A stretch of DNA of 64,000 nucleotides from a virus (lineage: Duplodnaviria > Caudoviricetes), in IMG/VR virus record IMGVR_UViG_3300046786_000293, positions 1 through 64,000 of that record. One strand, 5' to 3'. The notes under the pieces were generated by a model. That model made no database searches. It was not told the DNA's origin and saw only the letters and a list, made by a program, of their open reading frames with translations. Shown here one piece after another: positions 5,366 through 47,898 of this stretch. The position numbers and the translations under genes are program-made. Within the stretch, counting starts at the first letter, position 1. Each line of letters starts with the position of its first letter.

Positions 5366-5402
5366 ATTATTATTGTTGTCCTTCCCTGACAGAATATTTA
5401 TC

Positions 5403-5427
5403 AAAAAAAATGGACTCCTAAGAGTCC
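5403..5427 (-). terminator. Terminator at the end of the tmRNA coding piece
   Basis: GGACTC-TTAG-GAGTCC followed by A and T8 on the minus strand. Confidence 0.85.
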
Positions 5428-5651
5428 AATTTGGTTGTTTTGGTTACAAGGTAAGTCCTACCCCGGGTTTGGCACTATTAGGCCAATACAGCCTCGCGAC
5501 GAGCAGAAGCTAGCTTTACGCCTTTTCCGCTGAACTTGAAGCTACCATTTGTAGATGCTTTTGCATTTACTAGATTTATGCGATTAACGTTCGTCATCTA
5601 ACGTGCTGTCCACTCTGTTACTCTTTGCCCTGTCGAAACCATGGCAGGCCC
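5405..5651 (-). ncRNA. ssrA: Permuted tmRNA, coding piece (5' acceptor strand, D-loop, tag ORF)
   Basis: Starts GGGCCTGCCATGGTTTCGACAGGG (typical tmRNA 5' end); TAAAT|GCA resume context; tag ORF 5564-5478 ends in TAA. Confidence 0.88.
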
Positions 5652-5660
5652 ATCATAAAA

Positions 5661-5912
5661 TTACTTAATGTATTTGTTGATAACTTTAATTCCTGCGTAA
5701 GTTCCTAGCACAGTAAACATCATTTTGAATACTGTTGTCCAGTCAGTGGCATTACTTAAAGTTAGTTTAATAGGGCCTGCTTCGATGGAGTCTGTTGTTT
5801 TAGGATGATCTAAAAATTGAACATAATATAACAACAAATCCCAAGCATACTGGCTCAACAGATATATCGCAAACGATATAATAAAACCAGTAAACAAACC
5901 TCTACGATACAT
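5661..5912 (-). CDS. 83-aa two-TM protein inside the tmRNA intervening segment
   Basis: AGGAGA RBS directly after the tmRNA CCA; two hydrophobic segments; stop 9 nt before tmRNA G1. Confidence 0.8.
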   Translation of the reverse strand: MYRRGLFTGFIISFAIYLLSQYAWDLLLYYVQFLDHPKTTDSIEAGPIKLTLSNATDWTTVFKMMFTVLGTYAGIKVINKYIK

Positions 5913-5924
5913 TAAATCTCCTTA

Positions 5925-5990
5925 TGGTGGACCTGGCGGGAGTCGAACCCGCGTCCAGAACACTTTTCTCTTTGCTTCATACAGCAATAA
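5925..5990 (-). ncRNA. ssrA: Permuted tmRNA, acceptor piece (T-arm and CCA)
   Basis: ...GTTCTGGACGCGGGTTCGACTCCCGCCAGGTCCACCA; CAGGTCC pairs with GGGCCTG, giving a G3-U70 wobble. Confidence 0.9.
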
Positions 5991-5994
5991 CTAA

Positions 5995-6000
5995 TATTTA
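5995..6000 (-). promoter_or_regulatory. Putative T4-like late promoter TAAATA driving the tmRNA precursor
   Basis: TAAATA lies between a terminator and the acceptor piece; short motif, so position is the main support. Confidence 0.5.
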
Positions 6001-6005
6001 TCAGC

Positions 6006-6028
6006 AAAAAAGGCTCCGAAGAGCCTTT
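6006..6028 (-). terminator. Rho-independent terminator
   Basis: AGGCTC-TTCG-GAGCCT plus T-run on the minus strand. Confidence 0.85.
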
Positions 6029-6046: not shown

Positions 6047-6397
6047 TTACTCTGCAACAGCGTCAACGATGGCCTGAGCCTCGGACTTCTTAGAGCGAGC
6101 CTTAATAGCCTCGAGGCTGGGCTTTTCTGCCTTAGACGGCTTACTGACTTTGACAGTCTTAACTTCATTATACTTGGCATCTGCGGCATCGATTGCGGCA
6201 GTGTAACGAGCATCTGCATAGAGCTCAGTAGACTTGAGATAAGTAACCACTGCGGGCTTATCCATAGCCTCGGGCAGTTCGCGAAGCTCAATATCAGTAT
6301 GACCATTCTTGGCCAACACTTTAACACGAGTCATGTCATTGGCGAAACGAACTTTAGCTTCACCTTTGAGAACGGAAAGACCAGCAACTTTAAACAT
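6047..6397 (-). CDS. Conserved phage hypothetical protein with basic Ala/Lys-rich C-terminus
   Basis: 116-aa ORF with GGAG RBS, promoter upstream and terminator downstream. Confidence 0.8.
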   Translation of the reverse strand: MFKVAGLSVLKGEAKVRFANDMTRVKVLAKNGHTDIELRELPEAMDKPAVVTYLKSTELYADARYTAAIDAADAKYNEVKTVKVSKPSKAEKPSLEAIKARSKKSEAQAIVDAVAE

Positions 6398-21731: not shown

Positions 21732-21754
21732 AATATAGTTGAAATACAGAATAT

Positions 21755-22345
21755 TTATCTGCGCTCAACTACGCTGTCTGCTAATCCATAGGCCACTGCT
21801 TCTTCGGCAGACATAAAACAATCGCGTTCCATATCAGCAGTGAGTTCGTCAAAAGTCTTGCCCGCCGAATTATGTTTAACATAAATTCCAGTTAGATTCT
21901 TTTTCATTGCTAGAATTTCTTCAACTTGGATTAACATGTCTGTTGCCTGGCCTCGAGCGCCGCCACTGGGTTGGTGAATCATATGCCTTGCATTAGGCAA
22001 TATATGCCGCTTACCAGCAGCACCTGCGGTAGCCAAAAGACTGCCCATAGAACAGGCTTGCCCGAGAACAATAGTAGATACATCGGGTTTGATAAATTGC
22101 ATTGTATCATAAATCGCCATGCCAGCGGTAACGACACCGCCAGGGCTATTAATGTAAAAGAGAATATCGGCATTTGGGTTTTCGCTTTCTAAAAATAACA
22201 TCTGGGCCACTACAAGACTAGCACTATGTTCATTGACATCTGTGTCTAGTAATACAATCCGATCTTTAAGCAACCGACTGTAAATGTCATAGGCACGTTC
22301 TCCGTTGGAGGTTTTTTCTAGTACTGTTGGTACAAAATTTGGCAT
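21755..22345 (-). CDS. clpP: ATP-dependent Clp protease proteolytic subunit
   Basis: [25 protein letters not shown] (catalytic Ser), MIHQP (His), MERD. Confidence 0.97.
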
Positions 22346-44956: not shown

Positions 44957-46083
44957 TATTTTCCTAAACAATAACTATCTGTAAAAATTCCAATAGTATC
45001 TTCAAAAAGTGTTCCGTTATGTTTCCACTTTGCGGGTAACAGTTTATCCAATTGATTCATACCATTTTGCCAATTCCTTACATGAGCGCTGTTTTCGTCT
45101 TTAAAGAAAAATTTATCCCAAGGTTGGACTACACTCCTGTCAGCTTTGGCTGGACTAAAGAACATTGGCAATGTTCTATTATATACGATATTGCCTATAA
45201 AGTCATGTTTTGTTCTACCAGTTAGATTATTCAAAATGCTAGGATTTATTCCACGCTCTTTAAGATAGCTTTTGATAACATGCCCTTGTTTTATTAACAT
45301 CAATCCTGTAGACTCTGCCCAGTAAAACGGCTCCACATACAAAGGATTCTGGCTTCCGGTTCCACGAAATGGAACTACCAAATTAATAAATTTATCCAAA
45401 AATTTTAGATAGAACTGTCCATTTCTGTAATCGACTATTGGCTTATCCACACCAATTAAATGGGCAACTGTTTTGCCCATGTCTGTAATTCTTCTAAATT
45501 CGGTATTCACTAAATCAAAATCTGCACGCCAAGCAATACCTGGAGTGAAGCTATTTAAAGGGTTACTGTCGAAGTTAAACCAGTCTGGATTATTTTTAAA
45601 ATAGTTTATTGTGTAATCGCATGTATCAACTACTGTAATTTTTAAATCAGGCAAGTACGTATTTTTAACATATTCTGCTAAAGGATATGATTGAAAAAAG
45701 ACTTCTGCATAGTTATTTTCAGGTCGGTTATTTGCAATAGACTTATCAACGACGCCAATAGGTCCCCTGATAAAAATTTCATCCAATTTAATATTGTTTC
45801 GAATGAATGTTTCAAGGATGTTAGTGCTGTCTGCACCCCCGCTAAAGTGCAAGACTAAGTAGTCATATCGGTTTCTAAGTTCCCAGGCCCGAGCTGAATA
45901 TAACTGATCTAAAGTTTGTGTTGGCTCGAGTTCCCAATTTAATTTTTTATAAATGTCGTCATATAAAACAAACTTCACCGGCTGTTGTTTACGTTCCGAT
46001 TCTAGTATAGCTTTTATTTTACTTAAATACTTCTCATGGCCTACTTCATAGTGACCGTAATAAGTCCCATCGTAAGATAACAT
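44956..46083 (-). CDS. PP-loop (N-type ATP pyrophosphatase) protein
   Basis: HFSGGADS motif. Confidence 0.7.
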   Translation of the reverse strand: MLSYDGTYYGHYEVGHEKYLSKIKAILESERKQQPVKFVLYDDIYKKLNWELEPTQTLDQLYSARAWELRNRYDYLVLHFSGGADSTNILETFIRNNIKLDEIFIRGPIGVVDKSIANNRPENNYAEVFFQSYPLAEYVKNTYLPDLKITVVDTCDYTINYFKNNPDWFNFDSNPLNSFTPGIAWRADFDLVNTEFRRITDMGKTVAHLIGVDKPIVDYRNGQFYLKFLDKFINLVVPFRGTGSQNPLYVEPFYWAESTGLMLIKQGHVIKSYLKERGINPSILNNLTGRTKHDFIGNIVYNRTLPMFFSPAKADRSVVQPWDKFFFKDENSAHVRNWQNGMNQLDKLLPAKWKHNGTLFEDTIGIFTDSYCLGK

Positions 46084-47012
46084 TAATTAGTAACTTTCTC
46101 AAGACCTAAGCGACGCCTCATATCTTCGAATCTATTGTATTGGAAATCTAAGAACTTTTGACTATCGGCAGGTGGTTTAATAATTTCATATTCTAATAGT
46201 TTAAGACTAGAAATCAGATTATTATCTTTAAACGCTGTTTGAGATAAGGAAAACACCCGAGTATCAACTTGATGTCCTTTGACTGCGGATATACCAAACC
46301 AGTAATAAAAATCGAAATCTTCAATGGTTTGTTTTATTATTGGCAACTGCGAAAACTCCTGATGTTTACCTTGACTTGCAATGGCAATAATTTTAATTTT
46401 ATTATCTCTATGAGAATTAGCTAACGTAGACAATGGATCTATTGCACAATCTATACTGCCGCCTATTAGGTTCGCCGTAACATCGCTTGCACCTTTAAAA
46501 GGAATTATTTCAGTCTGACTCAAGCCTAAATGTTTAACTATAAACCTGCCAGCAAACGCTGAGCCAGAATTGCTTACTCCACAATTTAATTTTCTCTTTT
46601 TAGATTGTTCTAAAAATTCATTCCATGATGTAATACCGCTCTGATTACTAACGGCTACTACTAATGGAGTTCTAGCCAACGGCACTACCATATCAAATTG
46701 AGAATAATCGTAGCCATTATTTGAATATAGGACTTTATTAAACAATACAGGACCCGTGGCTGCAATCATGAATGTATTAGAGTCTAACGGCTTATTTAGA
46801 ATATAGGCAACACCTATTTTACCGTCTGCTCCAGGTTTATTTACGATAACCGAGGGAACATTAGAGTTAATTAAGTATTTTTGAAAATTGCGAGCAAACG
46901 TATCTACTGCACCACCTGGAGGATACGGCACAACTAATTCAACTGGTTGAGTTGCATGAGCTATGCTAAAAAATATAAAAAACGCAAAAATAAATTTTGA
47001 TAAATGTTTCAC
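46083..47012 (-). CDS. Bug/TctC tripartite tricarboxylate transporter substrate-binding protein
   Basis: Signal peptide; VVPYPPGGAVD; VNKPGADG; IPFKG...L.GG.ID. Confidence 0.88.
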   Translation of the reverse strand: MKHLSKFIFAFFIFFSIAHATQPVELVVPYPPGGAVDTFARNFQKYLINSNVPSVIVNKPGADGKIGVAYILNKPLDSNTFMIAATGPVLFNKVLYSNNGYDYSQFDMVVPLARTPLVVAVSNQSGITSWNEFLEQSKKRKLNCGVSNSGSAFAGRFIVKHLGLSQTEIIPFKGASDVTANLIGGSIDCAIDPLSTLANSHRDNKIKIIAIASQGKHQEFSQLPIIKQTIEDFDFYYWFGISAVKGHQVDTRVFSLSQTAFKDNNLISSLKLLEYEIIKPPADSQKFLDFQYNRFEDMRRRLGLEKVTN

Positions 47013-47013
47013 T

Positions 47014-47325
47014 TTATTCTTCAGGTTCTAATTTAACTACAAGAGGATATCCGTTGTTACGTGCAAGTTGTGTAACTTCAAATCCCTTTTGTTCAGCCAT
47101 CTCGTGTGGTAAAGTAGCAACTACACCCGATCCATCTGTATGGATCTTAATGGTCATTTCTTCTGCGGCCATGCGATCATAATTGAATATAATGACCAAA
47201 GTTTCGGCAACAAACTCTTGTGTGGTAACTTCATCGTTGATGAAAATTACATTATATCTTAAAGGTTTTGGAATGTCGGTTCTGGGTTTAATTTTTGTAA
47301 CAACGTTTGGATCTGCTGTAGTCAT
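47014..47325 (-). CDS. clpS: ATP-dependent Clp protease adaptor
   Basis: YNVIFINDEVTTQEFV; IHTDGSGVV; A..K; YPL. Confidence 0.92.
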   Translation of the reverse strand: MTTADPNVVTKIKPRTDIPKPLRYNVIFINDEVTTQEFVAETLVIIFNYDRMAAEEMTIKIHTDGSGVVATLPHEMAEQKGFEVTQLARNNGYPLVVKLEPEE

Positions 47326-47371: not shown

Positions 47372-47815
47372 TTACTTCTTGTAAGTAATAGCAATCTTCT
47401 TTGGCTTTTCTTCCTCGGGAATTACTAATTCCAAAGCGACTGCGAGAATACCGTTTTGAACGGTTGCTCCACGTACTTCTACGTTGTCTGCTAACGGGAA
47501 AGTGCGAGTAAAGTTTCGAGCACTGATGCCCTTGTGTAGATATTCTACTTTTGGCGCATCTTCTGCTTTGACTTTTTCACCTTTAACAGTTAGCAAGTTG
47601 TCCTTTAATTCTACATCGATTTCGTCTTCAGCAAAGCCAGCCACAGCTACTTCAATAATGAAATGTGTATCGTCCAATTGGGCGATATTGTGTGGGGGAT
47701 AGTTGTCTTTGCTATTAGCAAAAGTACGATTTAGTTCCTCAAACATACGGTCAAAGCCAATGGCATGACGATGTAGTGCAGGTAAATCAAAGGTACGAAG
47801 TGTGAATTGTGTCAT
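47372..47815 (-). CDS. ibpA: Small heat-shock protein (IbpA/Hsp20)
   Basis: IGFDRMF, YPPHNI, AVAGF, YLHKGISARNF, NGIL. Confidence 0.95.
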   Translation of the reverse strand: MTQFTLRTFDLPALHRHAIGFDRMFEELNRTFANSKDNYPPHNIAQLDDTHFIIEVAVAGFAEDEIDVELKDNLLTVKGEKVKAEDAPKVEYLHKGISARNFTRTFPLADNVEVRGATVQNGILAVALELVIPEEEKPKKIAITYKK

Positions 47816-47898
47816 TTTATTTCTCCTTATAAAGCAAGTTATGACATTTAAATGTAGACCCCACCCGGGCATCTACACAAATATTTATTATATAGAAA

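Follow-up and report, generated by a model that had tools for sequence, protein, structure and literature searches.

The stretch of DNA analysed here (the window, 64,000 nucleotides) encodes a tmRNA, a gene of known kind, with an unusual variant of the peptide tag that is genuine and under selection and that is a member of a sizeable family of phage tags. The window spans the initial 64 kb of the genome of an uncultured phage, which measures 338.5 kb and is 97% complete, and nearly all of the DNA runs in which the tmRNA stretch was found among public sequencing runs were freshwater or lake metagenomes. The setting is a giant lake phage with its own tmRNA.

According to both ARAGORN and Rfam, the minus strand carries a circularly permuted (two-piece) tmRNA at approximately 5403-5992 (Table 1). 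ARAGORN returned one permuted tmRNA (5387-6021, minus strand) with the tag AKASTNGSFKFSGKGVKLASARREAVLA followed by two stops, and the Rfam model RF04321 (tmRNA_permuted) matched 5537-5986 on the same strand over model positions 1-213 of 213, scoring 104.9 bits against a cut-off of 47. The gene has a tRNA-like domain, a permuted order and a pseudoknot 1 upstream of the resume codon. By Rfam alignment and sequence reading, the acceptor stem is made up of seven base pairs, GGGCCUG with CAGGUCC, with G3-U70 at the third pair, and the T arm is GCGGG/UUCGACU/CCCGC. The first stem of pseudoknot 1 was marked by Rfam and the second, AGAU with AUCU, is a putative pairing that was read from the letters. 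The ORF that fills the spacer has the appearance of a small membrane protein.

Table 1. Features of the tmRNA locus and of the phage Clp genes within the window
Feature	Position	Strand	Basis
Promoter-like motif TGATAAATATT, immediately before the tmRNA gene	5993..6003	-	Inferred promoter
Acceptor piece	5925..5992	-	Rfam alignment and sequence reading
Parts of the acceptor piece: helix 2 3' strands, T arm, 3' acceptor strand CAGGUCC, discriminator A, encoded CCA	5925..5992	-	
Intervening segment, removed on maturation (273 bases)	5652..5924	-	Sequence reading
Spacer-filling 83-codon ORF with a strong TAAGGAG ribosome-binding site	5661-5912	-	
Coding piece: 5' acceptor strand GGGCCUG, helix 2 5' strands, pseudoknot 1, tag frame, 3' tail	5403..5651	-	ARAGORN, Rfam, sequence
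Pseudoknot 1: CGUU/AACG stem; loop AGAU would pair with downstream AUCU	~5571..5603	-	
Tag frame, 28 codons, preceded by GUAAAU	5481..5564	-	ARAGORN, Rfam, sequence
Tandem stops TAA TAG	5475..5480	-	ARAGORN, sequence
Intrinsic terminator: 7-bp stem at 5411-5428, then a T run	5403..5428	-	
Phage ClpP	21755..22345	-	Pfam CLP_protease, E 1.6e-76
Phage ClpS adaptor, adjoining the Hsp20 gene	47014..47325	-	Pfam ClpS, E 1.5e-22

The resume codon, which the preliminary description of this DNA had taken from its context, is the GCA at 5564-5562. It was confirmed by ARAGORN, by the Rfam alignment, in which the window sequence UAAAU-GCA is matched to the RF04321 consensus resume site UAAaU-GCa, and by the frame-specific excess of synonymous changes described below. 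The frame opens with this Ala codon, has neither a start codon nor a ribosome-binding site, and runs to the tandem stops with a nonpolar C-terminus. Its length of 28 codons, on which ARAGORN and direct reading agree, had been given correctly, as had the span 5478-5564, which is the frame together with the first stop. The earlier account of the tag as basic and non-canonical also stood: there are six Lys or Arg residues against one Glu and one Asn, giving a net charge of +5; the acidic SspB-type element is absent, with no Asp and no Asn-Asp motif; and the end called by ARAGORN is Ala-Val-Leu-Ala and not Leu-Ala-Ala. A Pfam search of the 28-residue tag gave no match. The tag is very probably real and translated as annotated.

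Comparison with related tags supported this reading. When 27 distinct basic-tag DNA sequences were joined in a minimum spanning tree, 67 of the 111 single-base codon changes were synonymous against 27% expected (p = 2e-13). In two subfamilies, synonymous to nonsynonymous-type changes in frame 0 stood at 10 to 5 and 10 to 7, and frames 1 and 2 of the same subfamilies had no such excess (0-3 synonymous to 12-16). The tag stretch was also the best-conserved part of the tmRNA gene. Between the window and its relatives L004-L006 the tag frame was 94-97% identical, whereas the flanking stretches of 95 bases were 59-61% identical on the upstream side, which includes pseudoknot 1, and 75-79% identical on the downstream side. 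An excess that is limited to the annotated frame, together with the conservation of the tag, indicates on comparative grounds that the frame is read as protein and that the peptide is under purifying selection.

The preliminary description took the tag for an isolated case, but it is an allele within a tag family that is widespread in phages. The protein of 116 residues whose gene lies immediately upstream of the tmRNA (6047-6397) served to retrieve 56 related viral loci (the anchor loci), and ARAGORN and Rfam identified tmRNAs at 21 of these. Long basic tags were present at eight of these 21, some near-identical to the window tag and others, such as AKTSKLGTVKVAMGKNFRFGSRTEAVAA, plainly related to it. 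A DNA pattern composed of the resume context and the first five codons matched at least 118 further viral stretches, most of them permuted tmRNAs according to ARAGORN. The family gathered comprises 23 distinct basic tags of 27-34 residues, encoded by 27 distinct DNA sequences on approximately 35 viral contigs, and the tags align well. They start with Ala-Lys-Ala-Ser/Asn-Thr, a conservation that is partly circular because the search pattern fixed these five residues in much of the family, and the same start is present in the unbiased anchor loci. A strand-like stretch follows (Ser-Phe-Lys-Phe in the window, Thr-Val-Lys-Val or Glu-Val-Thr-Val in others), then a Gly-Lys-Gly/Asn turn and a second strand (Val-Lys-Leu, Val-Lys-Phe or Phe-Arg-Phe), and past this a basic patch, either Ala-Arg-Arg-Glu or Ala-Arg-Thr-x-Lys. 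The last residues are nonpolar in every basic tag (Val-Leu-Ala, Val-Ala-Ala, Ala-Phe-Ala or Leu-Ala-Val). From its residue pattern, the core may take the shape of a strand-turn-strand hairpin.

A second class of long tags was acidic and aromatic, with 21-31 residues, for example AKANTFEYFQVPVTLATANDAEFAIAA (L062-L179; L103, L064, L066). In many of these an ordinary ANDxxFALAA tag comes after an N-terminal module, and several long tags of both classes have a module of approximately 20 residues ahead of a complete ordinary tag. One long tag ends ANDSRFALAA, which is the entire tag of the sibling L003, and another (L029) ends ANDSAVLLAA. The placing of a module ahead of a whole ordinary tag suggests a separable add-on and a C-terminal degron; in the window tag, a basic segment appears to have taken the place of the ordinary part.

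The DNA pattern was also run against 185,579 bacterial and archaeal genomes. Most of the matches listed (at least 120) were chance matches inside protein genes and only one basic-type tmRNA was among them, which suggests that the family is phage-borne. This one, a permuted tmRNA of phage type whose basic tag has 32 residues, lies on a 2,038-base contig (L194) in a Dehalococcoidia MAG, and the contig is probably phage DNA that was mis-binned. Three alphaproteobacterial or proteobacterial MAG loci (L238, L261 and L262) have permuted tmRNAs with long non-basic tags of 26-40 residues and Ala-Ala ends, and their resume context is the same as that of the phage family. When the locus was compared with sequenced phages by BLAST, only the T-arm region matched, to the tmRNAs of Stenotrophomonas and Xanthomonas phages.

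Basic and ordinary tags are exchanged among close relatives. Ordinary tags, such as ANDEQFALAA, were present at 13 anchor loci, the same locus as that of the window tag, and in six tmRNAs farther from the anchor gene on larger sibling contigs; sibling tags at the same locus end ALAA. On the anchor-protein tree, a minimum of six changes of tag type is required and the types cluster no more than shuffled labels do, and both tag types occur in both well-supported halves. As the tree rests on 109 columns, it shows interleaving and not the order of events. By identity, the closest anchor sequence to that of the window (L003, 82%) belongs to a locus with an ordinary tag. Metatranscriptome contigs from two runs (X15 and X16) have a window-like acceptor piece and spacer ORF joined to an L004-type coding-piece head (5641-5992), which suggests that mosaic tmRNA genes exist in nature, with DNA carry-over possible, and the joining of these pieces to another coding-piece head fits cassette exchange inside the gene. 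For a close relative, metatranscriptome contigs run from the acceptor piece through the spacer into the beginning of the coding piece and stop short of the tag region; such contigs do not show transcript ends and may include DNA carry-over. The locus thus offers a natural series of peptide-selected tags, from an ordinary 10-mer through a module plus ordinary tag to a fully basic tag, exchanged at one site by close relatives.

The gene resembles the betaproteobacterial two-piece tmRNA (RF01850, RF04321), which also has phage copies such as that of Methylophilales phage Melnitz (PMC9004378). Both run from acceptor piece through spacer to coding piece, pair G3 with U70 in the acceptor stem, and have a T arm, CCA, pseudoknot 1 and a resume codon for Ala. 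On RF01850 the siblings at this locus reach scores of up to 169 bits, and their tags are of the form ANDxxFALAA. The window gene differs from this type in its tag of 28 codons, with a charge of +5, no Asn-Asp and a Val-Leu-Ala end, and in the protein gene in its spacer. With the E. coli ssrA tag AANDENYALAA (SspB, ClpX, ClpA; PMC9382460) it has in common addition by trans-translation, an Ala start and a nonpolar C-terminal end. However, the window tag is nearly three times longer and has neither the SspB-binding element nor the terminal Leu-Ala-Ala, and so departs from the canonical ssrA degron of 10-14 residues with an Asn-Asp or acidic part and a Leu-Ala-Ala end. The commonest length of tmRNA tags is 10 residues (PMC11915505) and nearly all of them have a nonpolar C-terminal end (PMC4131195). 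Among 18,146 phage genomes, tmRNA genes have been reported in 402, of which 53 have the two-piece form, and two-piece genes are known from aquatic phages too (PMC9004378); phage tmRNAs are also listed elsewhere (PMC4131195; PMC7162821); the tags were not analysed in these three studies. Our literature search found no published description of long basic phage tmRNA tags.

We propose that the locus encodes a two-piece tmRNA with a two-part degradation tag, for which host Clp or Lon, or the phage ClpA-ClpP-ClpS, would be candidate readers, and we hold this overall reading with slightly better than even confidence. Host AlaRS would charge the phage tmRNA. No SmpB, SspB or Lon was found in the phage genome (97% complete), and in the absence of a phage SmpB the tmRNA would depend on host SmpB for its delivery to stalled ribosomes. 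On such a ribosome, translation would resume at the GCA at 5564 and extend the unfinished protein by Ala and 28 residues. The nonpolar Val-Leu-Ala end, with the basic patch before it, would be the part most likely to be engaged by an AAA+ unfoldase; in relatives the counterparts of this end are Ala-Ala, Phe-Ala or Ala-Val, and the patch Arg-Arg-Glu just before the end recalls the basic MuA-type C-terminal ClpX signal. The basic core (strand, Gly-Lys-Gly/Asn, strand) would replace the acidic Asn-Asp element of ordinary tags and could act as a second recognition element for a putative adaptor or unfoldase, giving a tag with two functional parts. That the tag is a degradation signal seems likely, although its end differs from the Leu-Ala-Ala preferred by ClpX. 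One extension of this model is that the basic core is a built-in docking element through which tagged proteins reach host ClpX/ClpA or phage ClpA-ClpP without host SspB, creating a private tag-and-destroy channel in infection, with tag cassettes (basic, acidic/aromatic, ordinary) traded under pressure from host proteolysis or defence. We regard this extension as unlikely, and a phage-private degradation route is in itself doubtful.

The phage does supply some of the possible readers. The ClpP and ClpS genes named in the preliminary description were recovered with Pfam (Table 1), and a ClpA-type unfoldase of 764 residues, with Clp_N, two AAA modules and a D2-small domain, is encoded outside the window at approximately 313.6-315.9 kb; no ClpX-sized AAA protein was found in the phage genome. 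The suggestion that rescued proteins are rerouted to the phage protease is plausible but gained no support from these genes. ClpP and ClpA belong to the core genes of the phage clade, and siblings with ordinary tags have them equally (G029 and G030 with ANDEQFALAA, G024 with ANDSQFALAA), the siblings including one complete 357-kb genome. No association was found between ClpP/ClpA co-occurrence and tag type, and because most contigs are fragments the absences of these genes mean little. Neighbour-gene clustering found no gene specific to basic tags within 2.5 kb, with an 'ordinary' class that was contaminated by non-tmRNA pattern matches. Since these two genes also accompany ordinary tags in siblings, the phage protease can be counted among the candidate readers but has no specific tie to the tag.

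Other explanations for the tag differ in what would read it. A private tag read by phage ClpA-ClpP and tuned by ClpS, on a degradation route apart from host SspB-ClpXP, would fit a genome that encodes ClpP, ClpS and a ClpA-type protein and lacks SspB and ClpX. However, as the ordinary-tag siblings demonstrate, this protease set does not co-vary with the tag, and in E. coli ClpS lowers the use of ssrA tags by ClpA (PMC9382460), so we consider such a reader quite unlikely. Another possibility is that the tag is Lon-directed, a strand-like basic and hydrophobic degron that moves rescued proteins from ClpXP to host Lon. Its alternating hydrophobic and basic residues do resemble known Lon degrons. 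The long tags of Mollicutes, which are read by Lon, have a similar length of roughly 27 residues and already provide a case of a long tag that redirects proteins to another protease (PMC9382460; PMC8403727). The window tag, in contrast to these tags of organisms without ClpXP, has no NYAFA end, is basic and not Asn/Glu-rich, and comes from a phage that has no Lon and carries ClpP, ClpA and ClpS; its relatives keep Clp-type ends such as Ala-Ala, and a Lon-directed tag is a rather poor prospect.

The tag may instead not be degradative at all, and could stabilise, relocalise or aggregate the rescued fragments, or turn them into decoys that jam a host protease or defence sensor, in which case the swapping of tag types would reflect an arms race. 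The repeated changes of tag type on the neighbour-gene tree, at least six and with clustering not above that of shuffled labels, would be in keeping with this, as would a net charge of +5, which is unlike that of any ordinary tag. Yet a nonpolar C-terminal end, a hallmark of degradation tags, is found in every family member, and some relatives have a complete ordinary tag behind the added module, making a non-degradative role very unlikely. It could also be argued that the peptide is irrelevant, with conservation arising from RNA structure or recent spread and the length and composition from drift. Window-type copies are very similar to one another, and part of the tag frame can be folded as a long imperfect hairpin; but this predicted fold is no better than those of shuffled sequences (z = -0.74), the synonymous excess is confined to frame 0, and the peptide motifs of the basic-tag family are retained at 63-75% DNA identity. 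We consider this last explanation extremely improbable. What the degradation tag that we favour would mean depends on its added module. If the module recruits a reader of its own, the family would be an example of a virus re-addressing the waste-protein label of the cell and could provide new orthogonal degradation tags for synthetic biology; if the tag is only a longer Clp degron, it would be a modest extension of known tag diversity.

Some relatives encode a full ClpX (L311:564-1772 in G005, L312:618-1814 in G004 and L313:569-1759 in G003), with the zinc-binding N-domain, GYVG pore loop and IGF loop, and ClpX-sized matches were present in G003, G004, G005, G017 and G033. In four of these five the tags end in Phe-Ala, Ala-Val or Val-Ala, with no tmRNA found in G033, and four genomes that are at least 70% complete and have tags ending in Ala-Ala or Leu-Ala (G000, G014, G029 and G030) are without ClpX, a comparison based on a small sample with no correction for phylogeny. 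The loop of E. coli ClpX that reads the tag end is Arg-Lys-His; the corresponding loop is RKKH in one relative and SRKQ in another. Complex prediction for a 33-residue basic tag from a relative with two copies of the zinc-binding N-domain of that phage's ClpX gave a score of 0.01 (mark 0.32), which speaks neither for binding nor against it.

The motif TGATAAATATT that precedes the tmRNA gene recurs as an exact 11-mer at 5393-5403 (minus strand), past the terminator, so that two copies bracket the gene. Copies with one mismatch precede other genes, at 21750-21760 and, before the Hsp20 gene, at 47880-47890 (both minus strand). The motif may be a T4-late-like promoter, with seven copies found against 4.2 expected, a number not above chance. 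The ClpS gene is flanked by genes for a TctC-family solute-binding protein (46083-47012) and the Hsp20 chaperone (47372-47872), both on the minus strand. TctC genes are abundant in Burkholderiales, and the one beside ClpS may be a hint at the host.
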